Shown one piece after another: positions 28,459-46,707 of a stretch of 49,372 bases of DNA. The number at the start of each line of letters is the position of its first letter. Within the stretch, counting starts at the first letter, position 1. Below the pieces are notes generated by a model. The model was not told the DNA's origin. It saw only the letters and a program-made list of their open reading frames with translations, and did not search any database. The stretch comes from Escherichia phage Eco_BIFF. The DNA lies in sequence record MH285980; one strand, given 5' to 3'. The position numbers and the translations under genes are program-made.

Positions 28459-28871
28459 TTACAGACAAAGGTGATTATTTAGAATTTTACGAGCGAGATC
28501 CAAGCGATACTCGAAAGGAGGATGCTCATCAAGTTGATTGCGTGTCATGGCTGAAATACAATTTCCCTCACCTTCTATTTTGGCACACTGTCAATGAAGG
28601 TGAAAAAACAATCACATCGGCACTAAGGGATGAACAAGCTGGATTACTTAAAGGCGTGTCAGACTTCGTTATCCTGATTGGTGTCAACTCACGATACCCG
28701 TTTGCAGCAATAGAACTCAAGCGGGTTAATAAGTCAGGCAAAGGAAAGGCGTCACCAGTCAGCGACAAGCAAAGGGAATTTCTCCGAAAGGTCCGGGAGC
28801 GCGGTGGATTCTCTGCCGTCGCATACGGATTCGGGCAATTCAAGATCGCAATTTACGAAATGATGAAATAG
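28455..28871 (+). CDS. VRR-NUC domain nuclease
   Basis: 138 aa with D...ELK PD-(D/E)XK-type motif (SDFVILIG...AIELK); overlaps helicase stop. Confidence 0.6.
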   Translation: MITDKGDYLEFYERDPSDTRKEDAHQVDCVSWLKYNFPHLLFWHTVNEGEKTITSALRDEQAGLLKGVSDFVILIGVNSRYPFAAIELKRVNKSGKGKASPVSDKQREFLRKVRERGGFSAVAYGFGQFKIAIYEMMK

Positions 28872-28911
28872 CACTTTTTGTTAAAACTGCCGGAATGGAA
28901 TCTGGCATAAT
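28868..28911 (+). promoter_or_regulatory. promoter cassette (-10 TGGCATAAT)
   Basis: ATAGCACTTTTTGTTAAAAC + 18 bp + CATAAT with TG extension; stop TAG of 28455..28871 lies inside the element. Confidence 0.5.
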
Positions 28912-28991
28912 ATTCTCATTGAAACGTTACGGATGTGTAAGAATGAACACTATATATTTTGTTTGCAATGTAATTTGCGAAGAGTCTAAAG

Positions 28992-29141
28992 ATGAACATT
29001 TTTTCAACTGGGGATAGTTACGAGGTTTTAGAGAAGAATGATAATTACGTAATGATTGATAATAATGGAGTTGAACGTGATGTTTGTATGGTTAATGGCG
29101 GCATTATAGTATCAAGCAATTCAAAATTCACTGAGTTATAA
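28992..29141 (+). CDS. small hypothetical protein (49 aa)
   Basis: Short AT-rich ORF between promoter cassette 28868..28911 and dam; weak RBS. Confidence 0.25.
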   Translation: MNIFSTGDSYEVLEKNDNYVMIDNNGVERDVCMVNGGIIVSSNSKFTEL

Positions 29142-29152
29142 GGATTTAAACA

Positions 29153-29866
29153 ATGAAAGACTTCAACGATATAGAAACCATCGACTTTGCAGAGACTGGC
29201 TGCTCATTCACTCGCGAAGCAATAGCGTCAGGCTGTTATTATCAGGCATTGAAAACGCCAACCTGCAAAGAGATTTCAGGGCGTCGATACAAGGGAACAA
29301 ATACCCCTGACGCTGTTCGTGATTTATGGTCAACTCCACGCGAGGTTATCGCATACCTTGAGGGGCGCTACGGAAAATATGACCTCGACGCTGCGGCAAG
29401 TGAAGAAAATAAAGTTTGCGATAAGTTTTATTCTCAGGAAACAAACTGCTTAAAACGTTGGTGGGGTAAAAATAAGCATGTATGGTCAAATCCTCCTTAT
29501 AGTCGACCTGATATATTCGTCAAGAAGGCGATCGAGCAAATGGAGCACAACAACCAGATTGATATTCTGTTGCCTGCCGATAATTCTACAGCGTGGTTTA
29601 CTGAGGCGCGACAGCACGCGGCTGAGATTATCTGGATTGAAGCTGATTTGACGGAGGATATCGACGGGAACGAGTACGCCCGATCCGGTCGCCTGGCGTT
29701 CATATCAGGTGAAACCGGGAAGGCCGTTGATGGTAATAACAAAGGTTCGGTAATTTTCATTATGCGCGAACTGAAAGAGGGTGAGGTTCAACAGACTCAC
29801 TATATCCCAATCACAAGCATTTGCCCTTCGGTTAAAAACAAGCGCGCAAAAGTAAGGAAAGTATGA
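29153..29866 (+). CDS. dam: DNA N6-adenine methyltransferase (Dam-type)
   Basis: 237 aa; SAM-binding DLDAAAS and catalytic NPPY motifs; length matches the recalled T1 Dam. Confidence 0.8.
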   Translation: MKDFNDIETIDFAETGCSFTREAIASGCYYQALKTPTCKEISGRRYKGTNTPDAVRDLWSTPREVIAYLEGRYGKYDLDAAASEENKVCDKFYSQETNCLKRWWGKNKHVWSNPPYSRPDIFVKKAIEQMEHNNQIDILLPADNSTAWFTEARQHAAEIIWIEADLTEDIDGNEYARSGRLAFISGETGKAVDGNNKGSVIFIMRELKEGEVQQTHYIPITSICPSVKNKRAKVRKV

Positions 29867-30114
29867 TGAACGAGAAAATGATTCCTGTTAAGTTAACTGA
29901 TCAAGGTTTATGGCTACTTTATCGAGCTACGTGCTGCGAAATTATGGAGCGAAACGGATTGACTCAGGATGTTATTGGTTGCGATCTGTGGGATTTCACT
30001 AGTTCTCTTGATATGTCTTTCGGTGAGATAAAAAATGAACATATCGAGAATTGGCCTTCAATTATCCAGAAAGACGTAGAGGAACTTAAAGCAGATACGA
30101 TCGTTCAGCACTAA
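29863..30114 (+). CDS. hypothetical protein
   Basis: 83-aa ORF coupled to dam stop; RBS AGGAAAG. Confidence 0.45.
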   Translation: MMNEKMIPVKLTDQGLWLLYRATCCEIMERNGLTQDVIGCDLWDFTSSLDMSFGEIKNEHIENWPSIIQKDVEELKADTIVQH

Positions 30115-30148
30115 TTGCTAAAAATACCCGGCGAAAGTCGGGTATAGT
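30105..30148 (+). promoter_or_regulatory. promoter cassette (-10 TATAGT)
   Basis: TCAGCACTAATTGCTAAAAA + 18 bp + TATAGT; stop TAA of 29863..30114 lies inside; 26 nt before ATG 30181. Confidence 0.5.
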
Positions 30149-30180
30149 TATTTCATTGAGACAAGATGAGGAATCAAAAG

Positions 30181-30390
30181 ATGGCACGCATTAACGCAAA
30201 CTTTTTCAATATCGCTCAACAGTCAGCAAAAATGGCTGTTCATATCACCAACAAGAAAGGCGGTAACTTTGATTGGGATATTGCTATGAACTTCCTTAAA
30301 ATGGCTTATTACCTATGCTCAGTCAAAGATGTTGAGTGTTTTATTGAAAGCGTGGAGAAACTAACCAATGCTGATAAAAAAACAAGGTAA
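30181..30390 (+). CDS. hypothetical protein
   Basis: Start set at ATG 30181 (RBS GAGGAA); lies ~26 nt behind cassette 30105..30148. Confidence 0.35.
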   Translation: MARINANFFNIAQQSAKMAVHITNKKGGNFDWDIAMNFLKMAYYLCSVKDVECFIESVEKLTNADKKTR

Positions 30391-30872
30391 ACGAGAGGTT
30401 TGGGAGCACGCGAAGGAATGCGGAATATCAGACGATATAGCACTAATAGCAAAATATTTCGATATAAAGGATGTTAGCATTATATCAAACGGAAAGATTT
30501 CATTTATGGAAGATATGCCGAGAAAAATGCATAGAGTGCCAGCCACCCCGTCACTTGAGTTTTATCGTGAAGAAGGAAAGAGAATTGAGCGAGAACGAAA
30601 AAACGCAAAGAACAACAAGACTTCCAGGATTAAATATTAACTCAGATGGCTACCAGACAATATGGATCTGGAAAAGGCAGGTTAAGCAAATCCCTTTCTC
30701 TGACTGGCTACCACCTGACTTCGTTAACGTGCTGTGCACTATCGGGATCGAGAATGAGTTGCATATAGGTTATTACTCACCAGGTAGAAACAGCATGATG
30801 CTTGAGGTTGATGGAAAACTTGTTGAGTTTAAATCTTCAGACCTCGGATTCTGGTTAAAGGCTGTGGCATGA
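30368..30872 (+). pseudogene. hypothetical gene with apparent frame change at A6 run 30598..30603
   Basis: ORF 30368..30640 and ORF 30471..30872 overlap in different frames; removing one A from the A6 run fuses them into one ~167-aa reading frame. Confidence 0.3.
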
Positions 30873-30950
30873 ATCTTTATTTTGCTGTAGTATTAACACC
30901 GCTAATTTCATTTTCAGTAATGTATTTCATTATCATGTAAGGATTAAAAT

Positions 30951-32102
30951 ATGTCACAAGCTAAAATCACCACCGAGCAACTTATTGAAGAGCGCATGAG
31001 CGGCCTAACACTTCGCGAGATCGCGGAAAAATACGGCATGCACATTCGCACTGTTGAAGCGCGTCACGCCAAGCTGGCAAAAGAAGGTCATTTTCACGGT
31101 AACGAGCATGTTGCTAAAAACGTTCCCGAGGGATTCATGGTAAAAGGCACGTCGACGATGATTCGAGGTGATGGGACCGAGGTAGTGCGCTGGGTAAAGA
31201 CCGATCAGGACCGTGAGAAGATTGCGGCAATGATGGAAGCGGCTCGCATTGCATTCTGTGAAGACCTGCCGCGAGCAAATCCAACCAAGCTACTAACCTC
31301 GCAAGGGCTTACGACAGCTATGGGTAAGCTGGCACTCTATCCGGTATTCGATCTTCATATTGGCGCGCTTGCTCATAAGCATGAGTGCGGAGAGAACTAC
31401 TCTACCGATGTAGCGGAAAAAGTGCTGAGTGACTTCTTTAATTACGCGATCGATATTGCTCCGAACGCAGAGAAAGCTGTTCTGTTAATCGGCGGTGACT
31501 TCCTTCACTCTGACGGCCTTGATGCAGTTACCCCGGCAAGTGGTCACGTTCTTGATCAGGATTCACGATACGCAAAATTAGTGCATGTTGCGATTCGTTC
31601 GGTACGCCGAGCCATCGACAAAATGCTTATGAAACACAAAGAAGTCGAGGTCCAGGTTATCGAAGGGAACCACGATCAGTCTGGGATGATTTGGCTGAGA
31701 GCTGCAATGTCGGCATATTATGAAGACGAGCCGCGAGTATTCGTTGACGTTAGTCCTATGATTCTGCATAAGACTCGTTGGGGAAATACCTTGTTGGGAT
31801 ACACTCACGGTCACACTATGAAAAAGGCAGACACGCGACTTGCAGCAATGGCGGCAGATTTTCGATCAGACTTCGGCGAGAGCAAGTATGTGTATACTCA
31901 TAGTGGTCACTGGCATCACCAGACAATCACTGAGCACTCGCTTGGTATTGATGAGGTTCACGGTCAGTTAGGCGCGAAAGACGCATACGCAGCGCGCGGA
32001 GGGTGGCGCTCATATCGCCAGGCGGCTGTAATTGTTTACGATAAGCAGTTTGGGGAAATAGGTCGCTTCATCTATCGTCCAGAAATGACAGGATCGCACT
32101 AA
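30951..32102 (+). CDS. HTH-fused calcineurin-like metallophosphoesterase
   Basis: N-terminal HTH-like LTLREIAEKYGMHIRTVE; C-terminal motifs DLHIG, GGDFLH, GNHD, GHTH, GHWH. Confidence 0.6.
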   Translation: MSQAKITTEQLIEERMSGLTLREIAEKYGMHIRTVEARHAKLAKEGHFHGNEHVAKNVPEGFMVKGTSTMIRGDGTEVVRWVKTDQDREKIAAMMEAARIAFCEDLPRANPTKLLTSQGLTTAMGKLALYPVFDLHIGALAHKHECGENYSTDVAEKVLSDFFNYAIDIAPNAEKAVLLIGGDFLHSDGLDAVTPASGHVLDQDSRYAKLVHVAIRSVRRAIDKMLMKHKEVEVQVIEGNHDQSGMIWLRAAMSAYYEDEPRVFVDVSPMILHKTRWGNTLLGYTHGHTMKKADTRLAAMAADFRSDFGESKYVYTHSGHWHHQTITEHSLGIDEVHGQLGAKDAYAARGGWRSYRQAAVIVYDKQFGEIGRFIYRPEMTGSH

Positions 32103-32136
32103 TTGATAAAAACGCCCGAAGGGATTCGGGCATAGT
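32093..32136 (+). promoter_or_regulatory. promoter cassette (-10 CATAGT)
   Basis: ATCGCACTAATTGATAAAAA + 18 bp + CATAGT; stop TAA of 30951..32102 lies inside; 23 nt before ATG 32166. Confidence 0.45.
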
Positions 32137-32165
32137 AACAACATCGAAAGCAAAGAGGCTATATC

Positions 32166-32342
32166 ATGAAACGAGTTAAGTGCATCCGAAATGACTCCAA
32201 AACACTTCCATTCCGCGTAAATCAGATCTATAGTGTTGGTTATGATTTCGGTGGGGGATTGTTTGAGATTTACGACGGTCGAGGCTCAGTAATCCAGACT
32301 CCTCTGAACGGCAGCTATCTGGAATTTATTGCGATAGATTAA
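32166..32342 (+). CDS. small hypothetical protein (58 aa)
   Basis: RBS AAGAGG before ATG 32166; behind cassette 32093..32136. Confidence 0.35.
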   Translation: MKRVKCIRNDSKTLPFRVNQIYSVGYDFGGGLFEIYDGRGSVIQTPLNGSYLEFIAID

Positions 32343-32460
32343 CAATATCATTCATAACCTTACAGGCTGGCATGATTTACATGCTGGACTTTTTGCGTTG
32401 TATCAAATAAATTTGAAGGTTAAAATCGACTCACTTGTTCAAAAAATATATGGTGAGATT

Positions 32461-33588: not shown

Positions 33589-33795
33589 CCCACATGTAAC
33601 TTTCGTTCGTGAGTTTCGCGTATTCGCGAACTTCAATCTCGCATGTGTCGCCGTGCATCTCAGCGACCTTCTTCTCGTTCGCTACCGCCGTTTCTTCAGT
33701 CCAACCATCAGTCTTGCTGTAAAGGGTAGGAATCTCACTGCTAGTGCCGTTAGAGTGGCTGTAAACGCGAACTACTAAAAATTTGTTAGCCATGA
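33578..33795 (-). CDS. hypothetical protein
   Basis: Start moved to ATG 33795 (RBS GAAGGAAAG); 24 nt behind cassette 33826..33869. Confidence 0.4.
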
Positions 33796-33825
33796 TGCTT
33801 TCCTTCAGGTCGTTTCGATGAAACA

Positions 33826-33869
33826 AATATACCCGATACGAGATCGGGTGTTTTAACAAAAAGTGCTAT
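33826..33869 (-). promoter_or_regulatory. promoter cassette (-10 TATATT)
   Basis: Minus-strand ATAGCACTTTTTGTTAAAAC + 18 bp + TATATT; 24 nt before ATG 33795. Confidence 0.5.
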
Positions 33870-34069
33870 TTGTATCTTTTGACATGGAGAAGTAACTCCC
33901 CTTCCTGGTCGCAAAGATTATGCTCTCTGTCGCCGTTGGCCCTCATTGAAGTGAGCAGCAGACTCAACAATCCTTGTTCAAATTCCTCTTTCGTAAGCTG
34001 GAGTCTTGCGCACAATTCGACGTTCCGATCTATCAATGTTTCTACGTTCGCCAAACAATTCTTCATCAC
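33866..34069 (-). CDS. hypothetical protein
   Basis: RBS GGAG before GTG/ATG start; stop TAG lies inside element copy 33850..33869. Confidence 0.35.
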   Translation of the reverse strand: MMKNCLANVETLIDRNVELCARLQLTKEEFEQGLLSLLLTSMRANGDREHNLCDQEGELLLHVKRYK

Positions 34070-34385
34070 TCATTTCTCCAATGTGCATCATCTCCCACGT
34101 ATACCGATTGTTGTAGCCATCAATACACATCAGCTTCATCATTACCGGGCGTTTGATCTTTCCCTTGCACCAGTAAAATCCATCCTTGCAATCCAAGTAA
34201 CCCTCAGTCACGCAACGAGCGCAAAACTCCTTAGATAGCGCGCTTGTAAATTCACGGCGAGTAATTCCAGCAGCCTTAGCAAATCGCTCATTTTCCTTGT
34301 GGGCGTATATAAATTTCGCTATGTGCTGCCTGGTGTATTTGTCGTATCCTTCGCAGAACCTAAACAGATCTAAAAGAAGCAGCAT
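33978..34385 (-). CDS. hypothetical Cys-rich protein
   Basis: 135-aa ORF 4 nt after the ATPase stop; overlaps next ORF by ~90 nt in another frame. Confidence 0.35.
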   Translation of the reverse strand: MLLLLDLFRFCEGYDKYTRQHIAKFIYAHKENERFAKAAGITRREFTSALSKEFCARCVTEGYLDCKDGFYWCKGKIKRPVMMKLMCIDGYNNRYTWEMMHIGEMSDEELFGERRNIDRSERRIVRKTPAYERGI

Positions 34386-34389
34386 ATTA

Positions 34390-35958: not shown

Positions 35959-35987
35959 CACAATAAACTCCTTAGTTGACGGTGTGA

Positions 35988-36031
35988 ATGATACACCGCC
36001 AATGGTACACGCGTTTTTCAAAAAATGCTAT
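35988..36031 (-). promoter_or_regulatory. promoter cassette (-10 TATCAT); upstream of ATPase
   Basis: Minus-strand ATAGCATTTTTTGAAAAAC + 19 bp + TATCAT; element overlaps the last codons and stop of HNH 36018..36503. Confidence 0.45.
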
Positions 36032-36503
36032 TCGATCCGTGATTCTCATGAAAACCAAGATCAATGAGTATTGAATCTCTTAAATCTATAGCCTCACTAA
36101 CAGTGTCAACGCACCTTCCGTAAGTCTTACCCATAAATCTAACTCTTACCCTGTAAGAGCCTGATTTCATAGGGTATATGCAATTCATGCCAGATGTGTT
36201 ATTTTTGTTTAGACTTCTATTTGTTGTGTTCCCTTCTCTAGTTACAAGTCTTAAATTTTCAATTCTATCATCACCTGGTATATGGTTTATGTGGTCTATT
36301 TCCATACCTTCAGGTATCTGGCCGTTAAAAATAGTCCATACATATCTATGTCTATAAACCATCCTAAACCCATCATAAAACCTACAGTAACCCAGCCTAT
36401 CTAACTTTCCAGTCTCTCTCCCAACAAGGTTTTTAAATCTAGTGTTACTCTTATAATAAATAATTCCATCAACATATAAAAAATCATCTCTTATATTTAT
36501 CAT
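36018..36503 (-). CDS. HNH homing endonuclease (HNH + AP2-like domain)
   Basis: EIDHINHIPGDDRIENLRLVTREGN motif plus AP2-like GSYRVRVRFMGKTYG; AGA/ATA-rich codon usage; paralogue of 45598..46092. Confidence 0.7.
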   Translation of the reverse strand: MINIRDDFLYVDGIIYYKSNTRFKNLVGRETGKLDRLGYCRFYDGFRMVYRHRYVWTIFNGQIPEGMEIDHINHIPGDDRIENLRLVTREGNTTNRSLNKNNTSGMNCIYPMKSGSYRVRVRFMGKTYGRCVDTVSEAIDLRDSILIDLGFHENHGSNSIF

Positions 36504-36916: not shown

Positions 36917-36952
36917 TGCGTTAGCTCCTGATTGGTTATCTTGAATAAGGTC

Positions 36953-36996
36953 ACTTTATCAAATGACCTTACGGCAATATTAACAAATCGTGCTAT
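36953..36996 (-). promoter_or_regulatory. promoter cassette (-10 TGATAAAGT)
   Basis: Minus-strand ATAGCACGATTTGTTAATAT + 18 bp + TAAAGT inside hairpin AAGGTCA/TGACCTT; 30 nt before ATG 36916. Confidence 0.5.
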
Positions 36997-37209
36997 TTAC
37001 CAGGGAATATAATCTTCGTCGTCATTATCACCAATATCATCGCCTGGCATCTCGAAGTCGGGATTGTATTCACTTTCTGCGTCCATATCCATATTCCCTA
37101 GTGCGTCGTCAAGAGTAATTTCTTTATATGCAACCTTGATACACCATTCCGCACTAAGCCCGGCATCGAGCGCGGCAAAATAACGAGTACAGAAATTATC
37201 TTGTTCCAT
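36997..37209 (-). CDS. small acidic protein
   Basis: 70 aa; C-terminal half almost entirely Asp/Glu (DMDAESEYNPDFEMPGDDIGDNDDEDYIPW). Confidence 0.45.
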   Translation of the reverse strand: MEQDNFCTRYFAALDAGLSAEWCIKVAYKEITLDDALGNMDMDAESEYNPDFEMPGDDIGDNDDEDYIPW

Positions 37210-37437: not shown

Positions 37438-37470
37438 TTTTAATTCCTTTGTTTTGTTTGGTGTGTGAGT

Positions 37471-37515
37471 AATATACCTTACTCACTATTTATTGTCTTT
37501 AGCAATTAGTGCTAT
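37471..37515 (-). promoter_or_regulatory. promoter cassette (-10 TATATT, 19-bp spacer)
   Basis: Minus-strand ATAGCACTAATTGCTAAAGA; hairpin GTGAGTAA/TTACTCAC; 27 nt before ATG 37437. Confidence 0.45.
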
Positions 37516-37652
37516 CAGTACTCGGAAATTACTTGGCACTCCTTGATTGTTCCACCTAGAACTACTTTCTGCATCATTGCTTTTTGGTGGCTATCGTAAA
37601 CTCGAACATTTTTTACACTGTTAAATTTGCCAGTATAGAAAGTGTGAATATA
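37515..37652 (-). CDS. small hypothetical protein (45 aa)
   Basis: ATG overlaps upstream stop (ATGA); stop abuts element copy. Confidence 0.3.
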   Translation of the reverse strand, partial: YIHTFYTGKFNSVKNVRVYDSHQKAMMQKVVLGGTIKECQVISEY

Positions 37653-37654
37653 AA

Positions 37655-37975
37655 TCATTTTTTACCGTCCCAGGTTTGATACGCCGTCACAAGGTTAATG
37701 CTATGGTCGAACTCGTCAACGCTAAGCGATCCGATTCGAACAAGCTCTTTGTTGTGCTTAATATCGATCATCCGGCTATATGGATGACCTGGCACGTATT
37801 TGAATAGTCGCTTGCTGTCAGCAATATCAGCGTTGATTCCATAGAATCGGCCTACTGCCGCCTTCACGCGCTCCATGATGTTTTTTTCGTGGATTGCTGC
37901 CGCGTTATTCAATGCCGCGACCGTGCTTCCGTTAATCTTCGGTGATTTCGTTGTGATTTTATAAGTGTGGTTCAT
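37655..37975 (-). CDS. hypothetical early protein
   Basis: Start set at ATG 37975 (RBS AGGGGGG), which follows the upstream stop. Confidence 0.45.
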   Translation of the reverse strand: MNHTYKITTKSPKINGSTVAALNNAAAIHEKNIMERVKAAVGRFYGINADIADSKRLFKYVPGHPYSRMIDIKHNKELVRIGSLSVDEFDHSINLVTAYQTWDGKK

Positions 37976-38556: not shown

Positions 38557-38587
38557 GATTCTTTCCTCGTTTGCTGTTGATGTGTTT

Positions 38588-38631
38588 ACTATACCCCGAC
38601 TACCTTCGGGGCGTTTAGCAATTCGTGCTAT
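38588..38631 (-). promoter_or_regulatory. promoter cassette (-10 TATAGT)
   Basis: Minus-strand ATAGCACGAATTGCTAAACG + 18 bp + TATAGT after hairpin CCCCGA/TCGGGG; 25 nt before ATG 38556. Confidence 0.5.
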
Positions 38632-38966
38632 TAATCAATATCGAACTCAGCGGCATACGCTTTCTTGAAGCCAGCTTCACGCATGGTACGCTTGCTTATT
38701 TTGCGCGGGAATTTGTACTGGCTGTTAGGCTTAACCCACCAGAAGCATGCAGTCTCGCGGACGATTTCATATTTACCGTAACGGGTGAAGATGTCACGTT
38801 CCGCGTCAGGCTGGTTAACACAGGTCAGGAATTTAGCCGCTTTGTCTTCAGTTTTGATTTCTTCCCATACGAAGGAATCCATGCCGTTAACCTTGCAAGC
38901 TACCATGATGTACTCAACGCCGTTTTCGATTTTGATGATTTCGTTACCGCGATTTTCGTATTTCAT
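38631..38966 (-). CDS. hypothetical early protein
   Basis: 111-aa ORF behind cassette 39005..39048; stop TAA abuts TAGCAC of the next element. Confidence 0.45.
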   Translation of the reverse strand: MKYENRGNEIIKIENGVEYIMVACKVNGMDSFVWEEIKTEDKAAKFLTCVNQPDAERDIFTRYGKYEIVRETACFWWVKPNSQYKFPRKISKRTMREAGFKKAYAAEFDID

Positions 38967-39004
38967 TTTCCTGCTACTGATGTGTATCTCGTTTCGATGA
39001 GGTA

Positions 39005-39048
39005 ATTATGCCAAATCGCACCGATCGAGTTTTAACAAAAAGTGCTAT
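39005..39048 (-). promoter_or_regulatory. promoter cassette (-10 TGGCATAAT)
   Basis: Minus-strand ATAGCACTTTTTGTTAAAAC + 18 bp + CATAAT; stop TAA of 39032..39736 lies inside; 32 nt before ATG 38966. Confidence 0.5.
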
Positions 39049-39736
39049 TTGCGATCGCTTTGAAAAATCCACGCGGCGACAGGGATCGTATCAGCTTAGT
39101 TTTGGCAGACTTGCCGCCCAGCTTGTTTTGCTGTGCAGAGTACCCGTCAGGCAGGTTTACAGGTTTTCTCTCCGGCATAACGAAGTCGTCAGAGGTCCAC
39201 AGACAAGTCTTCTTCGGGTAAGCATCGCGCGGCGCGATATACATCGGGAACCAGGGATGCGCGTCATTCTCAGGAAGATAGCCGCCATACTCCCAGGGAT
39301 TGAAGGAGTGATTTGGTTTTCTCCATGCAGATGACAGGACGCTCACCGGATTCTCAATTATGTAAGTCACGCCCATGCTATCGCCAATGTTCGCGGCAAT
39401 ACGGGCAGTAGCGACAGCTTTCTCCTGGAATAGCGGATCACGTTCACGCTTGCTGGCAAAATGGCGAGCACCACTAACAGCAAGGTCAGTGCATGGATGG
39501 AAGGCCATAATAAAATCCGGTTTGTCATACACACCCGCGATCGTATCACGTTCGAACTTCTCATCAATGAAGACGTTCACATACTCAATGTTCGGATGCT
39601 CTACCCTGGCGTTGTACTTTGCGTAATCTCCGTGATCGGCTCCGTCAAAGTTGAAGCACATCACCTTATGACCTTGCTTTGCCAGTTCATGGCCAGCAAG
39701 ACCGGAACCGTCGAATAGTGACCAAATTAATTTCAT
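39032..39736 (-). CDS. compact DNA (cytosine-5) methyltransferase-like protein
   Basis: C5-MTase-like motifs in order: FDGSGLAG, PC (HPCTDLAVSGA), ENP, C-terminal AIANS; only 234 aa, little room for a target-recognition domain. Confidence 0.45.
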   Translation of the reverse strand: MKLIWSLFDGSGLAGHELAKQGHKVMCFNFDGADHGDYAKYNARVEHPNIEYVNVFIDEKFERDTIAGVYDKPDFIMAFHPCTDLAVSGARHFASKRERDPLFQEKAVATARIAANIGDSMGVTYIIENPVSVLSSAWRKPNHSFNPWEYGGYLPENDAHPWFPMYIAPRDAYPKKTCLWTSDDFVMPERKPVNLPDGYSAQQNKLGGKSAKTKLIRSLSPRGFFKAIANSTFC

Positions 39737-39999: not shown

Positions 40000-40019
40000 T
40001 TTTTAGCAAAAAGTGCTAT
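40000..40019 (-). repeat. copy of the 20-bp element without a properly spaced -10
   Basis: Minus-strand ATAGCACTTTTTGCTAAAAA at the edge of the AT-rich divergent region; hexamer at the cassette position is GAACAG. Confidence 0.35.
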
Positions 40020-40023
40020 CGAT

Positions 40024-40936: not shown

Positions 40937-40939
40937 GAG

Positions 40940-41188
40940 GTGATGACCATGAGCAAGATTAAGTACGACGCTCTGAAAGGTGTATTAATGCAACTAAATC
41001 CAGGCGAAGCATTTCAGCTTAACCCCGAGACTTTTGGATTCAATGGTGATTATCGTACAACCTTCGAATTTGTCCGGTATGTAAAGAAGGAGTTTGGATT
41101 CGAAGTTATTCACGCAGGTCTTGTCAGTGGCATTCAGACGTTCATCTTTAAGCCAAATGAGATTCGCTGCTTCACTTTGATGAAATAG
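40940..41188 (+). CDS. hypothetical early protein
   Basis: 82-aa ORF; stop TAG lies inside element 41185..41204. Confidence 0.45.
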   Translation: MMTMSKIKYDALKGVLMQLNPGEAFQLNPETFGFNGDYRTTFEFVRYVKKEFGFEVIHAGLVSGIQTFIFKPNEIRCFTLMK

Positions 41189-41228
41189 CACTTTTTGTTA
41201 AAACCGGATCGGGATAACCTGGTATAGT
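41185..41228 (+). promoter_or_regulatory. promoter cassette (-10 TGGTATAGT)
   Basis: ATAGCACTTTTTGTTAAAAC + 18 bp + TATAGT; 25 nt before ATG 41260. Confidence 0.55.
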
Positions 41229-41259
41229 AACCCCATCGACAACGAACGAGGATACAAAC

Positions 41260-41748
41260 ATGAAAATCAAATTACTTTGCACTGGCGGTTACAAAGGCTT
41301 TACCCGCGACCTTGAAGCGGACCCTATCGTGGTTGATGCGGTTAAGTGCGATTCCAGCACTGGAGGCTACCGCGTTAAGGTTGACGATCTTATTAAAGCT
41401 GGCGTGTACGATCTTGACTACGGACTTTCTGTTAGCCCTGTATTTGGTCCGGCTGACTTCAACGAGAAAGACGGAACGATGTTCTTTTTTGAATGGGAAG
41501 TTCAAGCGAACGTCAAGCCGCGCAAGGTTCGACTTCTCAGTAATGGCGGCTACCCTATGCGTCCAGGTTATGAGAATCGCACGTTCCCGGTTATCGTTGA
41601 CTTTGAAGAAATCACCGAGCACTTAGCTTATATCAACGGTGAACAGCTTAATGCTGTTGGATTCGTGGGAGGTATGAATCAAGAGGCGCTATGCTTCTTC
41701 CATTGTAAAGCCGATCCGTTCGATATTGAGTGTGAGTTAGTCTACTAA
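41260..41748 (+). CDS. hypothetical early protein
   Basis: 162-aa ORF 25 nt behind cassette -10; stop TAA inside next element. Confidence 0.45.
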   Translation: MKIKLLCTGGYKGFTRDLEADPIVVDAVKCDSSTGGYRVKVDDLIKAGVYDLDYGLSVSPVFGPADFNEKDGTMFFFEWEVQANVKPRKVRLLSNGGYPMRPGYENRTFPVIVDFEEITEHLAYINGEQLNAVGFVGGMNQEALCFFHCKADPFDIECELVY

Positions 41749-41789
41749 GCACGAATTGTTAAAAGGGGATTTGTCCTGAATGGTATAAT
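41746..41789 (+). promoter_or_regulatory. promoter cassette (-10 TGGTATAAT)
   Basis: TAAGCACGAATTGTTAAAAG + 18 bp + TATAAT inside hairpin GGGGATT/AATCCCC; 24 nt before ATG 41820. Confidence 0.55.
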
Positions 41790-41819
41790 CCCCACATCAA
41801 CCACTAAAAGGAAATCATC

Positions 41820-42326
41820 ATGTTAAAATTAGAAGACGTAAAATTCCCGATTAAGTTTATCAGCCTGGGTTGCGGTGAAATTACATTCGCCAGTGAAGAT
41901 AAGGGCAAATGGGCCACTGATGAGGTGTCTCAGCTTAAGTTGGATTGGTTTATCGCCAGACATAACGAAGTGAATAAAGAAAATTCACCAAACAAGGACT
42001 ACCACTACATTATGAGTGGCGATCTGGGTGCGAAAGGCATGTTTGATGGCTGGAAGATTGAACGCTCCATATTTCACTTCGCAAAGCCAGAAATTAAGCC
42101 TATGCTGCAATGCACTCAGATCGAGAACATGCCATTGAGCGCGACGCTAAAAGGAGTGCAGCTTGATGATAAATCATGGCTTGAAATCACCGCCACGCCG
42201 AAAGCTATTGAAGTGCACGACGATATCGTCACTCTTCTATTGCATTATGGCGGCTTCAAACACAAAACGGTATCAGGTGAAATCAGTATTAAGCGCGGAA
42301 CGCTTGTACGCTATGAGGTGAAATAA
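41820..42326 (+). CDS. hypothetical early protein
   Basis: 168-aa ORF, RBS AAAGGAAA, behind cassette 41746..41789. Confidence 0.45.
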   Translation: MLKLEDVKFPIKFISLGCGEITFASEDKGKWATDEVSQLKLDWFIARHNEVNKENSPNKDYHYIMSGDLGAKGMFDGWKIERSIFHFAKPEIKPMLQCTQIENMPLSATLKGVQLDDKSWLEITATPKAIEVHDDIVTLLLHYGGFKHKTVSGEISIKRGTLVRYEVK

Positions 42327-42475
42327 TGACGGCGTGGATTTTAATTATCTTGATGAGTACCGGGCCGGATCACGTATACATGGAGAGCCAACAATCATGC
42401 AATAAGGCACGGGAAGTTATCGCAGAGAATAAGCCGTTCGGGTACGAAGTTAAAACAATGTGCGTTAAACGATAG
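42326..42475 (+). CDS. small hydrophobic protein (49 aa)
   Basis: ATG overlaps upstream stop (TAATG); N-terminal hydrophobic segment; stop TAG inside element 42472..42491. Confidence 0.3.
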   Translation: MTAWILIILMSTGPDHVYMESQQSCNKAREVIAENKPFGYEVKTMCVKR

Positions 42476-42515
42476 CACGAATTGCTAAACCTTCCGCAAG
42501 GCCATTTGATATAGT
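42472..42515 (+). promoter_or_regulatory. promoter cassette (-10 TGATATAGT)
   Basis: ATAGCACGAATTGCTAAACC + 18 bp + TATAGT in loop of hairpin AAGGCCA/TGGCCTT. Confidence 0.55.
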
Positions 42516-42578
42516 GGCCTTATTGAAGAAAAGCAACCAATCAGGCTGGATGCCGCATAATTTAATTAGGTTTTATCT

Positions 42579-42812
42579 ATGATTATCGTCAACAAAGAAA
42601 CTGGAGAGGTAATGGAGAATTGCATCATCATAGAAGAATCACCAAAACCAAAGCACAAGCATGATACTTACAGAAAGGTCACTTGCAAGGCTCCGGGGTG
42701 TGGTAATGCATACGATGCAAAAGTGTCCGATCTAAATCGCGGGTGGGGATTAACTTGCAGCAAGTCGTGTGCCGCCGTCGTTCGTGAATTAAAGAAGAAA
42801 GGGAATATATAA
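42579..42812 (+). CDS. small zinc-ribbon-like protein
   Basis: 77 aa with paired Cys motifs (CKAPGC ... CSKSC). Confidence 0.4.
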   Translation: MIIVNKETGEVMENCIIIEESPKPKHKHDTYRKVTCKAPGCGNAYDAKVSDLNRGWGLTCSKSCAAVVRELKKKGNI

Positions 42813-42961
42813 TGGCTACACGACTCACTCAGTGGCAGATTTACGACAAGGCATCACTCCTACGCGAATCACTTCGCGGATTGACACCGAACGACAGAAT
42901 GGAGATTATCGGGCACGCATTGCACGAACTCACGTCTCAGGACGTAATCTATCATTCATGA
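42812..42961 (+). CDS. small hypothetical protein (49 aa)
   Basis: ATG overlaps upstream stop (TAATG); RBS AAGGGAA. Confidence 0.3.
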   Translation: MATRLTQWQIYDKASLLRESLRGLTPNDRMEIIGHALHELTSQDVIYHS

Positions 42962-43001
42962 GGCAATAAATTCTGGAACGTGACATTCGAGGTAAAGAAA
43001 G

Positions 43002-43289
43002 ATGAGCAAAACTCATAAGTTAAAAATCGCCCCGGTACATTTCATTGGTGTAATGAACGGAACCAAAACGGCAGAGTTCCGCGTCAATGACCGAAACTTC
43101 CAGGTTGGTGATATCCTTGAGCTACGAGAGTTCGATCGCGATGAGTTTACCGGTTGGGAGGTTCACGCCAGGGTATCCGATGTTACAGACGTGACGCCAC
43201 ACATCAATCGCGGGTATGACGATCAAGGATGCGACTTCACGCAATACGTGATGTTATCAATCAAGCCTTACAGGAAGATTAGACCATGA
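43002..43289 (+). CDS. ASCH-like (DUF3850-type) PUA-fold protein
   Basis: KLKIAPVHFIGVMNGTKTAEFRVNDRNFQVGDILELRE matches the DUF3850/ASCH pattern recalled from memory. Confidence 0.5.
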   Translation: MSKTHKLKIAPVHFIGVMNGTKTAEFRVNDRNFQVGDILELREFDRDEFTGWEVHARVSDVTDVTPHINRGYDDQGCDFTQYVMLSIKPYRKIRP

Positions 43290-43924
43290 AATTTGAATGC
43301 GTATCGAGTAGCGGATCGGGGTTTAAGTGGGGGAAAACTTACAAAGGCGCTCGCGTCAATGACGACAGTTTTATCATTATTGATGAGAGCGGTTGCAATG
43401 TGAACGTTGTCCGGCGTCACGAACACCAAGAAATATTCCTGCCGTATGGCGGTAGCTCAAAATATATCTTCCATCGAATCGTAGATGGTGTTAAATTTAA
43501 AGACGTAATCGAAGCAATCAACCAACTGCATAATAAAGAGGTAAAATTTATGAAATTCGAATGTATCAGTGATAACACCAAAAAATTTACCGTTGGCAAA
43601 ATCTACGACGTGCCTACTGAGCACGCAAAGCACACTGTAGCGCTGACCGACGACACGGGCCGCCACCGAATTGCAACCGTAACTCACAATGGCGAAGGCC
43701 TTCGCTGGAACAGCGGCGGCACTAAGTTCGCAACGTTCGGCAGGAAGCGCAAGCGCACTTTCAGCGTCAATGGCAATGTTGCAGCTAACAAGATCCACAA
43801 CGTCAAGCCGTCGGAAGTTGACCGTAAGCCAGCGCTGAAGTTTGAAGAGAAGGCGGATTTGTCTGGCCTGGCTGTGGCGATTGTTCTCCTGGTAGCTGCG
43901 ATTTCGCTGATGTTCATCATGTAA
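43286..43924 (+). CDS. membrane-anchored protein with internal tandem duplication
   Basis: Two ~85-aa repeats each starting MKFEC(V/I)S, internal RBS AAGAGG before the second; C-terminal TMD. Confidence 0.45.
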   Translation: MKFECVSSSGSGFKWGKTYKGARVNDDSFIIIDESGCNVNVVRRHEHQEIFLPYGGSSKYIFHRIVDGVKFKDVIEAINQLHNKEVKFMKFECISDNTKKFTVGKIYDVPTEHAKHTVALTDDTGRHRIATVTHNGEGLRWNSGGTKFATFGRKRKRTFSVNGNVAANKIHNVKPSEVDRKPALKFEEKADLSGLAVAIVLLVAAISLMFIM

Positions 43925-43977
43925 TTTTAACGGGGAATCTGCTCTGAGCGGTTCCCCTTTCTTTTGGAGAAAGAACT

Positions 43978-44088
43978 ATGCCAGACTTTTCTAACTGGAA
44001 TAACGAGCCGCCATCATTTCATGAGTTGCTATTTTGCCTACTGATCCTGACATTATCTCTTAAGGGTGTTTTATGGCTACTATCATGA
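43978..44088 (+). CDS. small hydrophobic peptide (36 aa)
   Basis: RBS GGAGAAAG after terminator-like hairpin 43931..43962; hydrophobic LLFCLLILTLSL; overlaps next gene start. Confidence 0.25.
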   Translation: MPDFSNWNNEPPSFHELLFCLLILTLSLKGVLWLLS

Positions 44089-44288
44089 CAGCAGAAGATG
44101 CAGCACGCGACGCAGTGGAAGGAATGCGCCCAAATACCTCCAGAATCTCCCACTACTACAAATTTGATGTGTCGGCAGTGCAATTGGTCCACGAAATTTT
44201 AAGGCTCCCACAAGTCGATTCAGCGCGCGTGGTGACGTGCTTAAAAAATTATTTTTGCATCACTGTTAAAACGAATAGCACGAATTGA
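44073..44288 (+). CDS. hypothetical early protein
   Basis: 71-aa ORF with RBS AAGGGTG; stop TGA inside element 44275..44294. Confidence 0.4.
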   Translation: MATIMTAEDAARDAVEGMRPNTSRISHYYKFDVSAVQLVHEILRLPQVDSARVVTCLKNYFCITVKTNSTN

Positions 44289-44318
44289 TAAAACCTATCA
44301 AGGGGAATGCGCTATGAT
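44275..44318 (+). promoter_or_regulatory. promoter cassette (-10 TATGAT)
   Basis: ATAGCACGAATTGATAAAAC + 18 bp + TATGAT in hairpin GGGGAAT/ATTCCCC; 24 nt before ATG 44349. Confidence 0.5.
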
Positions 44319-44348
44319 TCCCCTACACCAACAAACGAGGAAGCACTC

Positions 44349-44795
44349 ATGAAACACTTAATTTGCATTGAAACGCCTAACGATGAATACACTCTGCACG
44401 GCATTGGAATGTTCAAAGGTCACTACATGACAGCGAGCATTTACGATGCTCGTCGCGGCGATGGCGATCTGATGATTACGTCAAGAGAAGTAAATCCGTA
44501 CATTATGCAGAATCTTGGCGATAACGAATATATGGCCTACGGCTGCAACGCGGTGTACAAGCACATTAAGATCCGCAAGCATGTTGTGCGTGCATTCAAG
44601 AAAATTGCAATGAAATACTGGAAGATGAGCAAGAAGGATGCCGGACGCTGGGCGCGTAACGTTGCAGATTCATACTTCTACCGTAACGGTGAGTCCTGCT
44701 ACTTCCTGGTCGATGAAATTATGGAAAACTACGGCGGCGACTTCAGTCAGTGTAGCTTTGACGCTTGGGCTGACTATGAGATCAGTTGCTGGTAA
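44349..44795 (+). CDS. hypothetical early protein
   Basis: Start set at ATG 44349 (RBS GAGGAAG); track start 44307 lies inside the promoter cassette. Confidence 0.45.
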   Translation: MKHLICIETPNDEYTLHGIGMFKGHYMTASIYDARRGDGDLMITSREVNPYIMQNLGDNEYMAYGCNAVYKHIKIRKHVVRAFKKIAMKYWKMSKKDAGRWARNVADSYFYRNGESCYFLVDEIMENYGGDFSQCSFDAWADYEISCW

Positions 44796-44838
44796 TAGCA
44801 CTAATTGCTAAAACTTGCTCAAGGGTATTTGATAGAAT
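44795..44838 (+). promoter_or_regulatory. promoter cassette (-10 TGATAGAAT)
   Basis: ATAGCACTAATTGCTAAAAC + 18 bp + TAGAAT in hairpin AAGGGTA/TGCCCTT; 33 nt before ATG 44878. Confidence 0.55.
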
Positions 44839-44877
44839 GCCCTTCGTTGAGTTAAGCAACCAATCAGAGGAATCACT

Positions 44878-45081
44878 ATGAAAACTATTACCGGAATGAG
44901 CAACGAAACGAGAACGCAGATCGTTAGCATGCTAATCGGCATGGCTGACGATATTCAGAATAGCCATGTCGTTATTGATTCATGCAATCAGACTCGTGAG
45001 AGTAAATTTGAATCATCCGGCTACAAAATTGTTGAAGAAGAATTAACCATCAAAATCATTCGCGTACAGGAGAAAGCATAA
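44878..45081 (+). CDS. hypothetical early protein
   Basis: 67-aa ORF with RBS AGAGGAA behind cassette 44795..44838. Confidence 0.45.
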   Translation: MKTITGMSNETRTQIVSMLIGMADDIQNSHVVIDSCNQTRESKFESSGYKIVEEELTIKIIRVQEKA

Positions 45082-45611
45082 TGGATAAAATCACAATTTG
45101 GGGTCAGAAAATCAACCTGTTTCTCGGCACGCGCCGCGTAGCAATCTTTGACTTTGACGGGACGCTGAGTGAAGGATCTGGTCGACTTCACCTGTTACCG
45201 ACAAAAGATTTGCACTTGACTGAAAGCTGGTCTGAGTTTAACCGTGCGGCAATATTTGACAACCCTATCCAAAGCACGATCGACGTGATGAACTCTATGT
45301 TTGCCGCTGGATATCATGTAATAATTTTAACCGGGCGAAGTGATGAGGTGCGTTACGCATCTGAGTTATGGCTTAAGCATCACGGCGCTCGATATGATTA
45401 CTTAGTCATGCGACCGCACACCGACAACCGTAAAGACACGGTAATGAAAGAAGAGGCAGTGCGCGCGATCGGCATTGATAACATTCTGGCGGCTTGGGAT
45501 GACTCAGTGAATATAATAAAAAAATTCAGAGAGCTAGGAATAACCACGTATCAGGTTTGTGAATATGCCTGTAATAGTCGAGAGGATTTAAAAAGTCATG
45601 GTGTCGATTGA
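45081..45611 (+). CDS. HAD-superfamily phosphatase
   Basis: HAD motif I FDFDGTL and downstream motifs (ILTGRSD, W-DD); RBS GGAGAAAG. Confidence 0.6.
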   Translation: MDKITIWGQKINLFLGTRRVAIFDFDGTLSEGSGRLHLLPTKDLHLTESWSEFNRAAIFDNPIQSTIDVMNSMFAAGYHVIILTGRSDEVRYASELWLKHHGARYDYLVMRPHTDNRKDTVMKEEAVRAIGIDNILAAWDDSVNIIKKFRELGITTYQVCEYACNSREDLKSHGVD

Positions 45612-46092
45612 TAACAAATCAAGGGTAAGAGAGTTATTTACTTATTCTGACGGCGTTCTGTATTGGAAAGCTAAATCATCTAAATACAGTAGAGCTAAAA
45701 TAGGAGGAGCGGCAGGAAGCAAGGATAAAGACGGATACATAATAATCAGAGTAAGAAGCGAAACTAGAGGCGCTCACAGGCTTGTATGGATATACCATAA
45801 TGGTAAGATACCGAATGGAATGGAGGTAGACCATATGGATGGAGACATAAAAAACAATAGAATAGAAAACCTAAGATTGGTAACGAGAACCATAAATAAC
45901 AGGAATCAAAAAAAGAGATTTGATAACACAACCGGAGTATCCGGTGTAACTTTCATGAAAGATAGAGGAAAGTATAGGGCGCAAGTTAGAAATAAGAAAC
46001 TCGGGCAATTCGACACAATAGAAGAGGCCGCTCAAGCCGTAAATTATGAGCGTGATAGATTAGGTTTATTCACAAAAAGACACGGAGTATAA
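45598..46092 (+). CDS. HNH homing endonuclease (HNH + AP2-like domain)
   Basis: EVDHMDGDIKNNRIENLRLVTR motif plus AP2-like GKYRAQVRNKKLGQF; AGA/ATA-rich codons; paralogue of 36018..36503. Confidence 0.7.
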   Translation: MVSIDNKSRVRELFTYSDGVLYWKAKSSKYSRAKIGGAAGSKDKDGYIIIRVRSETRGAHRLVWIYHNGKIPNGMEVDHMDGDIKNNRIENLRLVTRTINNRNQKKRFDNTTGVSGVTFMKDRGKYRAQVRNKKLGQFDTIEEAAQAVNYERDRLGLFTKRHGV

Positions 46093-46094
46093 AC

Positions 46095-46667
46095 ATGAAA
46101 ACAGCTATCATTTTAAACGGAGCACCTGGCGCAGGAAAAGACACTATCGGATGCATCCTGGCTGACACTTACGATCATGTAGCGCTACGCAGCTTCAAAG
46201 CGCCAATGTTTGAGATTGCCAGAGCAATCCTGGGTGAGGCTAATTTCGAGTATTTCATGTTCTTGTATGAGGACCGTCGCTATAAAGAAGAGCCAGCATC
46301 AATCCTGAACGGTAAAAGCCCGCGCCAGTTTATGATCTGGATTAGCGAGGAAGTCATCAAGCCGCAGTTCGGAAATCGCTTCTTCGGTATGCGAGCGGAA
46401 AGCAAGGTGAAAGAGTCGCACTCCCTTTCGGTATTTACTGATGGTGGATTCAAAGACGAAATCTTGCAGATGATTGAAGGTGATATCCAAGTCAAGCTAT
46501 GTCGAATACATCGCAACGGTTGCAACTTCGATAATGACAGTCGAGACTATATCTACCTGGACGATATGATCGGGGTTAACGGCTATCAGGAGTGTGACTT
46601 CTTCTCTGTCGAAGGTCATCCAGAAATTACCGCTCATCACATAGCCGCCACGTTCATCAATAAATAG
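46095..46667 (+). CDS. P-loop nucleotide kinase (dNMP-kinase-like)
   Basis: Walker A GAPGAGKDT at N-terminus, 190 aa; RBS GGAG; stop TAG inside element 46664..46683. Confidence 0.55.
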   Translation: MKTAIILNGAPGAGKDTIGCILADTYDHVALRSFKAPMFEIARAILGEANFEYFMFLYEDRRYKEEPASILNGKSPRQFMIWISEEVIKPQFGNRFFGMRAESKVKESHSLSVFTDGGFKDEILQMIEGDIQVKLCRIHRNGCNFDNDSRDYIYLDDMIGVNGYQECDFFSVEGHPEITAHHIAATFINK

Positions 46668-46707
46668 CACGAATTGCTAAAACGTCGGTGGGGTGATTTG
46701 ATATAGT
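46664..46707 (+). promoter_or_regulatory. promoter cassette (-10 TGATATAGT)
   Basis: ATAGCACGAATTGCTAAAAC + 18 bp + TATAGT; 26 nt before ATG 46740. Confidence 0.55.

Follow-up and report, generated by a model that had tools for sequence, protein, structure and literature searches.

Early genes of Escherichia phage Eco_BIFF (sequence record MH285980) are packed so tightly that one short repeated element stands both at the end of a gene and ahead of the start of the next, which raises the question of what this element is and why upstream stop codons lie inside or against it. The stretch analyzed here, hereafter the window, comprises 49,372 nucleotides (nt). Its region 40000-47000 is ~90-92% identical over 80-85% of its length to T1-like coliphages (LeonhardEuler, JMPW1, Shfl1, and others), and since region 28000-49372 gives the same match pattern, the 49.4-kb window is essentially the whole genome of a T1-like coliphage of the genus Tunavirus (Drexlerviridae).

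Counting the A of ATAGCAC as position 1, the element spans 19-21 bp, and the pattern TAGCACNNNTTGNTAA with at most two mismatches occurs 24 times in the window, compared with a mean of 4.4 and a maximum of 9 in shuffled sequences. It is the 21-nt direct repeat aaATAGCACnnnTTGnTAAAA described in the 2024 re-annotation of phage TLS, where 21 copies were counted, its presence in T1, Rtp, and Rogue1 was mentioned as an unpublished observation, and a stoperator, an enhancer site, or a UP element was suggested (PMC11447400). Motif, orientation with transcription, and a location ~76 nt ahead of start codons are the same in both phages, the copy number is similar, and our family-wide position table agrees with the published consensus. 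The TLS authors term the repeats intergenic and rank their function among the open questions for T1-like phages, and neither text nor supplement mentions stop codons or gene overlap (PMC11447400). The extended -10, stem-loop, frame bias, and indel junctions reported below are likewise absent from that description (PMC11447400), and we found neither transcription start maps of T1-like phages nor a mention of the stop overlap in the literature.

The original prediction, made from the letters of the window, was that the element doubles as a gene terminus in an unusually compact stop-promoter-start unit. The observation behind it holds and could be extended; the interpretation is partly supported, being right in substance and calling for four corrections: the repeat had already been published, it is not a -35 element, it serves as a stop only secondarily, and the unit includes a stem-loop.

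Upstream genes end inside or against the element

Genes were called with a simple model of codon usage and ribosome-binding sites, which returned 80 genes concordant with the GenBank annotation of five relatives. Wherever same-strand coding sequence lies upstream of a window copy, its stop codon falls at positions -2 to +17 of the element (16/16 copies). As had been proposed, the consensus carries stops in two frames, TAG at 2-4 and TAA at 15-17, and the four TAG stops among the 80 gene calls are each an element TAG. They close genes 28455..28871, 40949..41188 (the start called here), 42326..42475, and 46095..46667, with position 1 at 28868, 41185, 42472, and 46664, respectively. At gene 41260..41748 (position 1 at 41746), ATA has become TAA at 1-3, while TAA or TGA at -1 to 1, followed by the in-frame TAG, ends 44349..44795 (again the start called here), 38631..38966(-), and 37515..37658(-), with position 1 at 44795, 38631(-), and 37515(-). 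Gene 36997..37209(-) ends with TAA at -2 to 0 (position 1 at 36996, minus strand).

Stops in the right half comprise TGA at 12-14 for gene 44073..44288 and for the HNH gene 36018..36503(-), whose product ends NSIF (position 1 at 44275 and 36031(-)), and TAA at 15-17 for 39032..39736(-) and 25893..26345(-) (position 1 at 39048(-) and 25909(-)). Genes 29863..30114 and 30951..32102 had been assigned right-half stops too, and here the prediction missed: their TAA is the central N3 at 8-10 (CAC-TAA-TTG; position 1 at 30105 and 32093), in two copies whose TAG is mutated (TCAG, ATCG). The other stops it had named were found where it placed them, and tabulating every copy adds 25893..26345, 36997..37209, and 37515..37658.

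The sole apparent exception is the minus-strand copy at 33869, where the annotated upstream gene 33978..34385 ends 110 nt earlier. Among five relatives, however, 25 of the 32 variable sites in this 110-nt gap lie at codon position 3 of the frame that ends at the element TAG, an excess indicating that the TAG serves as the stop of a shorter open reading frame (ORF) and that, judged from its substitution pattern, a short coding region ends there. The ORF predicted at 33866..34069(-) thus had the right frame and stop; its start is doubtful, since it overlaps 33978..34385 and is not so annotated. The frame of 33869-33977(-) is +1 relative to the 135-residue gene 33978..34385, whose stop context is AGA GGA ATT TGA A, and it is either a separate ORF of ~33 residues, annotated only in phage ULIM2, or a +1 frameshift extension.

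The compactness of the unit is borne out as well, the intergenic space being wholly filled by stop, element, -10, and leader. Position 1 lies 74-84 nt from the next start in 14 of the 16 units, or in 15 of the 17 promoter-type cassettes, and the other two, at 108 and 125 nt, are those in which a small window-specific gene has been inserted. The copies outside this pattern comprise two in reverse orientation, two in leaders, and two lacking a -10. We infer the promoter from sequence, and the stem-loop was not part of the original prediction.

Stop use across T1-like phages exceeds chance and is biased in frame

An exact-pattern scan of IMG/VR, combined with the five GenBank relatives and the window, gave 287 copies from 39 T1-like loci, which dereplication on the 45 nt upstream reduced to 159 junctions, 137 of them with a -10-like hexamer at the fixed offset. 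For each junction the upstream frame was taken as the longest open frame of at least 120 nt. Stops begin at position 2 (TAG) in 63 of the 137, at -1 in 12, at -2 in 10, at 1 in 2, at 8 in 6, and at 15 in 12, so that 105 fall at -2 to +17; only five lie at -30 to -3, and some 27-32 are farther away, some of these junctions probably hiding short ORFs that end at -2.

In 83% of the 137 units, a frame open for at least 120 nt is closed at -2 to +17, compared with 12.6% for 20-nt windows at random positions and with 49% of trials in which the motif was pasted at random (p=1e-16). The motif provides stops in two frames alike, yet upstream genes favor that of TAG: frame use is 81:12:12 over the junctions (p=2e-20) and 45:6:6 after collapse to 57 blastp protein families (p=2.6e-12). 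The distribution thus differs from chance, as the original prediction required. In seven of the 19 families with several members, homologues use differing in-element stops; the gene terminus moves over evolutionary time yet remains within the element. The last sense codon before TAG, which is AAA in 41, GAA in 14, and CGA in 4 of the 63 cases, is the element's own "aa" flank, and the element therefore also dictates the last residue.

The TAG is conserved as part of a DNA site

Family-wide, G4 is conserved in 100% and A3 in 99% of copies, and the alternatives TAA or TGA are never seen in place of TAG; the need for a stop alone is therefore not what conserves it. G4, C5, C7, and G13 are the most conserved bases of the element. 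TAG and G4 are intact in 8/8 window copies without an upstream gene, namely those at 5828 and 9592 (reverse), 15761 and 48494 (leader), 24817 and 40019 (no -10), 26358, and, by annotation, 33869, and TAG is intact in 27/27 family units whose upstream stop is more than 30 nt away. As these bases persist even without coding sequence ahead of them, it is as a DNA site that the motif has been conserved; stop use is opportunistic and comes second. All 12 clusters lacking TAG have an upstream ORF that ends elsewhere in the element, six of them at the TAA of 8-10; the association of TAG loss with that stop (Fisher p=8e-6) is discounted, as the six cases represent only two orthologous junctions.

The element stands at a fixed distance from an extended -10 and a stem-loop

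In nearly every window copy, TTGnTA lies exactly 22 nt from a YATAAT-like hexamer, the copy at 37515(-) having 23 nt, and in the 159 family junctions a -10-like hexamer occupies positions 39-44 in 137, with no other offset exceeding 18. Base frequencies over the whole family, not conditioned on the hexamer, are T36 49%, G37 84%, A40 91%, T44 89%, C50 71%, and A51 81%. In sequence, TGn, a TATAAT-like hexamer, and a purine start 6-7 nt downstream agree with an extended -10, and the unit reads as a putative promoter of that type (TGnTATAAT) with a C-A start. From the fixed 22-nt spacing, the element would lie at about -50 to -32, where it forms an imperfect dyad, TAGCA-N5-TGCTA, centered near -42 and perfect only when N14 is C (61%).

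Other assignments were rejected. TTGnTA as a sigma-70 -35 would need a spacer of 16-18 rather than 22 nt; a sigma-54 promoter (GG-N10-GC; TGGCAC-N5-TTGC) differs from TAGCAC-N3-TTGC, which has AG in place of GG and a spacing 2 nt short; and a UP element, A/T-rich and at -57 to -38, disagrees in composition with a site that conserves G4, C5, C7, and G13 and spans ~-50 to -32. A generic -35/-10 promoter scan of 28000-47500 showed no enrichment (34 vs 39.7 expected) and did not pick up the units.

A GC stem-loop usually begins in the 15 variable bases after the element and either stops short of the -10 or extends past it. Folding energies average -10.9 kcal/mol in the window units against a background of -6.1, and -13.0 against -6.7 kcal/mol family-wide, where 61% of units fall under the 5th percentile of the background (p=4e-45). 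Several of these hairpins were labelled terminators by the annotators of phage SA12KD. At 32112-32133, and in other cassettes whose stem follows directly on TAAAA, the opposite strand reads a stem-loop and then TTTTAnCAA, the complement of the 3' end of the element; in sequence this looks like a modest intrinsic terminator for antisense transcription, and the terminator scan flagged 32133-32112(-).

Genes are gained, lost, and replaced at the cassettes

Chained blastn alignments to five close relatives defined 13 distinct indel events in 28000-49372; breakpoints were taken from close relatives only, because alignment ends against distant IMG/VR sequences mostly mark fading similarity rather than junctions. 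Cassettes account for 6.7% of the sequence but for 12 of the 26 boundaries (p=3e-8), and three events are flanked by a cassette repeat of 32-90 nt. The check proposed with the prediction, whether gene insertions and deletions always break at the element, thus comes out largely positive: they often do so at the element or cassette. At the 41185 cassette, relatives carry 1.0-2.0 kb of extra genes between two cassette copies (90-nt overlap); the 38631 cassette is a hot spot, with four differing insertions in four relatives (56-59 nt overlap); and gene 44349..44795, between the 44275 and 44795 cassettes, is missing from ULIM2 (32-nt overlap). The HNH gene insertion begins exactly at position 1 of the 36031 element, accompanied by two substitutions in that element, one of which creates the TGA of the HNH gene, and one gene replacement ends exactly at position 1 of the 41185 element. 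Three small window-specific genes stand directly after cassette ends (28948-29140, 42545-42811, and 44874-45077). A second HNH endonuclease gene (HNH_3 with a weak AP2 domain), at 45598-46092, is not at a cassette; the region is unlike all five close relatives, with 483-543 nt here and 111-247 nt there, and is probably a second homing-endonuclease insertion.

Why gene ends would gather at the element

We lean, with some reserve, toward the reading that the element is the protein-recognized upstream part of an early or middle promoter cassette, whose protected stops capture the ends of upstream genes. The phage would carry ~17 copies of such a cassette of ~75 nt, composed of aaATAGCACnnnTTGnTAAAAc at about -52 to -31, a 15-nt variable stretch usually holding a GC stem-loop, the extended -10 TGnTATAAT in fixed spacing, a predicted transcription start with C-A, and a leader of ~25 nt with a Shine-Dalgarno sequence. 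A putative protein beside RNA polymerase, either activator or repressor, would recognize the element, and as the constrained site spells TAG (2-4) and TAA (15-17), these stop codons would be unable to mutate away. With a protected in-frame stop behind it, a gene's own stop would become dispensable and free to decay, and with stop loss far commoner than gain over a few codons, gene ends would drift onto the element. Small C-terminal indels would be tolerated when they land in the TAG or TAA frame, whereas the third frame would need its own stop at -2 or position 1, making such indels mostly lethal and leaving that frame depleted. The TAA frame would add the constrained tail N-S-T-x-C and the TAG frame only one residue, Lys or Glu and usually Lys, which would favor TAG. 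Since all copies share the stops, recombination anywhere in the cassette would keep the upstream terminus and any gene could be joined to any copy, and recombination between cassettes would reshuffle the small early genes of this densely packed genome.

Several points count against this reading. A generic terminator scan of 28000-47500 showed no enrichment (19 vs 17.2 expected), and a U-run is absent after most stem-loops. Pfam recognized no DNA-binding regulator among 20 early proteins, the only matches being DUF3850/ASCH, a PNKP phosphatase domain, two HNH_3, and VRR-NUC, and a search of the literature found no transcription start, binding, or reporter data for these sites. Why the frame dependent on a TAA of its own at -2 is so rare is explained only indirectly, by moves into it being mostly lethal and moves out of it mostly neutral, and stopping at UAG may bring a positive advantage. 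Besides, junctions from related phages are not fully independent, and under a stricter null that allows indels at every gene junction, cassettes show a modest excess (p=0.07 over all boundaries and 0.01 over those located at junctions).

Of the alternatives, the one that survives best, which we nevertheless rate as rather unlikely, is that the stop position is itself functional: termination at UAG ahead of the stem-loop would let the hairpin fold behind the last ribosome, and the hairpin would be a terminator, attenuator, or 3'-end protector insulating each cassette. A stop at 2-4 leaves ~15 nt to the commonest stem start, position 20, and ~15 nt is roughly the downstream reach of one ribosome. 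When the stop is at 12-17, the stem never starts before position 23 (0/9 vs 32/78) and the hairpin is missing more often (3/12 vs 3/81), comparisons that rest on small numbers. The terminator labels of the SA12KD annotators agree with such a role, as does the transcription termination by T4-type PeSL (promoter-early stem-loop) stem-loops (PMC2839356). Most hairpins, however, are without a U-run, many span the -10 or the transcription start instead of preceding it, and a stop at -2, which should do just as well, is six times rarer. A clash between ribosome and hairpin as the sole cause of the frame bias was rejected, being only suggestive and leaving the rarity of -2 stops unexplained. That UAG termination one ribosome-length before the stem-loop is a selected part of a standard "stop, insulator, promoter" junction can be entertained tentatively.

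A pure by-product, in which a motif with stops in two frames has genes pressed on it by compaction, nothing is selected, and the pattern is uninformative, seems to us improbable. Pasting at random already closes a frame in about half of the trials, and TAG is conserved whether it is used or not; observed use is nonetheless far above the pasted level, the frames would be expected to be roughly equal rather than skewed toward TAG even across protein families, spacers of 1-30 nt are almost absent (5/137), and loss of TAG always comes with a replacement stop inside the element.

It is very improbable that the motif is conserved because it is a stop signal, with TAG kept by coding selection and the rest incidental or acting at the RNA level. 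TAG is the commonest terminus (63/137), and read-through transcripts as well as the leaders of two late genes include the element; against this, TAG persists in all copies without an upstream gene, in reverse copies, and where another frame is read, G4 never varies though TAA would stop translation just as well, the rigid spacing of 22 nt to the -10 is a constraint at the DNA level, and Rfam covariance models at the gathering threshold gave no match anywhere in the window. An annotation artefact, with true stops elsewhere and small ORFs that are not genes, is barely credible: several upstream ORFs are indeed short (47-83 residues) and without known function, and the start of 33866..34069 is doubtful, but independent annotation of five GenBank relatives arrived at identical ends, larger genes of known type (VRR-NUC, Dcm-like methylase, HNH endonuclease, P-loop NTPase) end likewise, and the doubtful region has the codon-position-3 excess described above.

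Related systems and significance

T4-type PeSL cassettes fill the space from stop to ATG before small genes of unknown function; recombination between copies has been proposed to delete, insert, and circularize such genes, and terminator activity and mini-circles have been shown (PMC2839356, PMC4122927). By analogy of architecture they are the closest counterpart of the Eco_BIFF cassettes, both being repeated composites of promoter and stem-loop that fill intergenic space, with indels in close relatives flanked by cassette copies. The two are unrelated: no sequence relationship is seen, and the hosts of the present cassettes are siphoviruses of another family, Drexlerviridae. PeSL promoters have a canonical sigma-70 -35/-10 and an AT-rich upstream, while here an extended -10 has a conserved site 22 nt upstream and no -35, and the conserved part itself holds the stop codons.

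In class II activator-type promoters, such as those dependent on Mu Mor/C or T4 MotA, the activator site overlaps the -35 region, its dyad centered at about -41.5 to -43.5. The present units resemble them in a good -10, no -35, and a partly dyad site at a fixed distance, centered at ~-42; they differ in that an extended -10 could work unaided, so that the site could equally be a repressor's, and in that copies also occur in leaders and without a -10. Mycobacteriophage L5 is temperate, and its stoperators bind the phage repressor. The likeness to these lies in a single asymmetric site that recurs many times along the direction of transcription, within intergenic spaces that are very short, whereas T1-like phages are virulent, to our knowledge have no repressor, and hold the site fixed relative to the -10. 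Integron attC sites are recombination-prone repeats right after each cassette ORF, whose stop often lies inside; here, in contrast, there is neither integrase nor attC structure, and exchange looks homologous (32-90 nt repeats).

The 21-nt repeat, an open question of the 2024 TLS paper, thus becomes a promoter-associated, predicted protein site near -42 with a stem-loop. It marks junctions where early genes were gained, lost, and swapped, and its TAG/TAA would have captured upstream gene ends, a neat example of genome compaction with modular exchange of genes and no new kind of machinery. If the protected-stop reading is true, Drexlerviridae own an unrelated counterpart of the T4-type PeSL system, which would suggest "plug-and-play" junctions as a general answer among virulent phages. 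Should the stop position instead prove to be selected, one 21-bp site would serve as protein-binding site, universal stop codon, and recombination linker, early genes could recombine next to any cassette with their own and their neighbor's expression unchanged, and the repeat left open by the TLS authors would have its first functional handle. In annotation, gene ends within the repeat and small ORFs that extend as far as it are to be expected, and for phage engineering the cassettes would offer natural, insulated insertion points, if the reading holds.

Individual cassettes and outlying copies

On the plus strand, cassette 28866..28991 (element 28868-28886) holds in TAG 28869-28871 the stop of the VRR-NUC gene 28455..28871, followed by a stem-loop at ~28888-28907, an extended -10 TGGCATAAT at 28903-28911, and a predicted transcription start near A28918; the small window-specific ORF inserted here puts the next start, 28992, at a distance of 125 nt. 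In cassette 30105..30180 (element 30105-30123), TAG has become CAG and 29863..30114 reads on to the in-frame TAA 30112-30114, with a GC stem-loop at 30124-30145, -10 TATAGT at 30143-30148, and the next start at 30181. Cassette 32093..32165 (element 32093-32111) has TCG in place of TAG, and 30951..32102 stops at TAA 32100-32102; its stem-loop lies at ~32114-32131, its -10 CATAGT at 32131-32136, and the next start at 32166.

Farther right, cassette 41185..41259 (element 41185-41203) ends 40949..41188 with TAG 41186-41188 and has its -10 TGGTATAGT at 41220-41228, a predicted transcription start at A41235, and the next start at 41260. The gene beginning there, 41260..41748, stops at TAA 41746-41748 in cassette 41746..41819 (element 41746-41764, ATA changed to TAA; -10 TGGTATAAT; next start 41820). 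In cassette 42472..42578 (element 42472-42490), TAG 42473-42475 is the stop of 42326..42475 and the stem-loop spans the -10 TGATATAGT; the cassette ends at ~42544, and the window-specific gene 42579..42812 is inserted directly after it. Cassette 44275..44348 (element 44275-44293, with TTGATAA) supplies TGA 44286-44288 to gene 44073..44288 and has -10 TATGAT and the next start at 44349 (or 44307). Cassette 44793..44877 (element 44795-44813) follows with TAA 44793-44795 as the stop of 44349..44795, then an in-frame TAG, -10 TGATAGAAT, and the next start at 44878. The last, 46664..46739 (element 46664-46682), closes 46095..46667 at TAG 46665-46667 and combines a strong stem-loop (-22 kcal/mol) with -10 TGATATAGT, the next start being 46740.

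Minus-strand cassettes begin with 33794..33869 (element 33869-33851), where TAG 33868-33866 closes the short, mostly unannotated coding region 33977..33869 and is followed by a stem-loop at 33849-33831, -10 TATATT, and the next start at 33793. The element of cassette 35959..36031 is degenerate (36031-36013, ATAGCATTTTTTGAAAAAC), with TGA 36020-36018 as the stop of the HNH gene, -10 TATCAT, and the next start at 35958. In cassette 36917..36999 (element 36996-36978), the abutting TAA 36999-36997 ends 36997..37209 and the stem-loop spans the -10 TGATAAAGT (next start 36916). Cassette 37438..37517 (element 37515-37497) has TGA 37517-37515, the stop of 37515..37658, sharing its last base with position 1 and followed by an in-frame TAG; it is the one with the 23-nt spacer, and the next start is 37437. 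At 38557..38633 (element 38631-38613), TAA 38633-38631 stops 38631..38966, again ahead of an in-frame TAG, with a GC stem-loop, -10 TATAGT, and the next start at 38556. Cassette 38967..39048 (element 39048-39030) ends the Dcm-like methylase gene 39032..39736 at TAA 39034-39032, and its -10 is TGGCATAAT and its next start 38966. Cassette 25833..25909 (element 25909-25891, ATAGCATTTTTAGTTAAAA), beyond the range covered by the original prediction, gives TAA 25895-25893 to 25893..26345, with -10 TAACAT and the next start at 25832. Close to it on the plus strand, cassette 26358..26439 (element GTAGCAC... at 26358-26376, TAG intact) has no same-strand upstream gene and is the first unit of the rightward helicase operon (-10 TATTAT; next start 26440).

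The remaining copies depart from this arrangement. The copy 40001..40019(-) lies in the AT-rich divergent control region, lacking both an upstream gene and a -10 at the fixed distance, and 24817..24835(+) is without a -10 and antisense to the flanking minus-strand genes; in both, TAG is intact and the copy is conserved in relatives. Canonical sigma-70-like promoters cluster in the AT-rich divergent region 40035-40420, which, by its sequence, is likely the immediate-early control region; within 39740-40420, between the leftward and rightward early operons, stand TTGACA-17-CACAAT with TG at 40334-40362 and TA-rich repeats at 40115-40178. Two perfect copies are reversed within the late (+) structural operon, 5810..5828(-) in an intergenic gap, its TAG intact and unused as a stop, and 9574..9592(-) in a gap just ahead of the ribosome-binding site of 9614..9931, the minus strand there carrying a -10-like TGATAGGAT at the fixed distance; judged by orientation and spacing, the two may be promoters of antisense transcription, or operators that work in the opposite orientation.

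The copy 15761..15779(+), degenerate with two mismatches, lies in the leader of 15783..19202, downstream of a terminator and the TGTATAAT promoter, and is neither a stop nor upstream of a -10, and 48494..48512(+), with one mismatch, follows a terminator-plus-promoter module and belongs to the leader of 48528..49052, the gene for the small terminase. Three related modules of this kind occur in the late and packaging regions (13524-13568, 15703-15747, and 48444-48488), each a GC hairpin and a T-run followed by CTGTAGAAT, CTGTATAAT, or CTGCAATAT; two of them precede the leader copies at 15761 and 48494, a location from which a bound protein would act as a block and not as an activator. A weak copy with two mismatches, 30437..30455(+), inside ORF 30368..30640 and 35 nt before the start at 30471, is a doubtful member, and at 22078-22097 the degenerate, element-like TAA-ACTGCACAAATAGCTAA, directly after the stop of late gene 21016..22080, may be a decayed copy.

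Two features vary between groups of copies. The central N3 and N14 of the element co-vary, GAA with C and TTT with T, and a leader motif, (G)CAACCAATCAG(G/A)AG, which includes the ribosome-binding site, recurs in some cassettes and before two late genes (42531-42544, 44857-44870, 36930-36945(-), 9593-9606, and 4072-4085). Together they suggest, as sequence patterns, cassette subfamilies spread by duplication or gene conversion.

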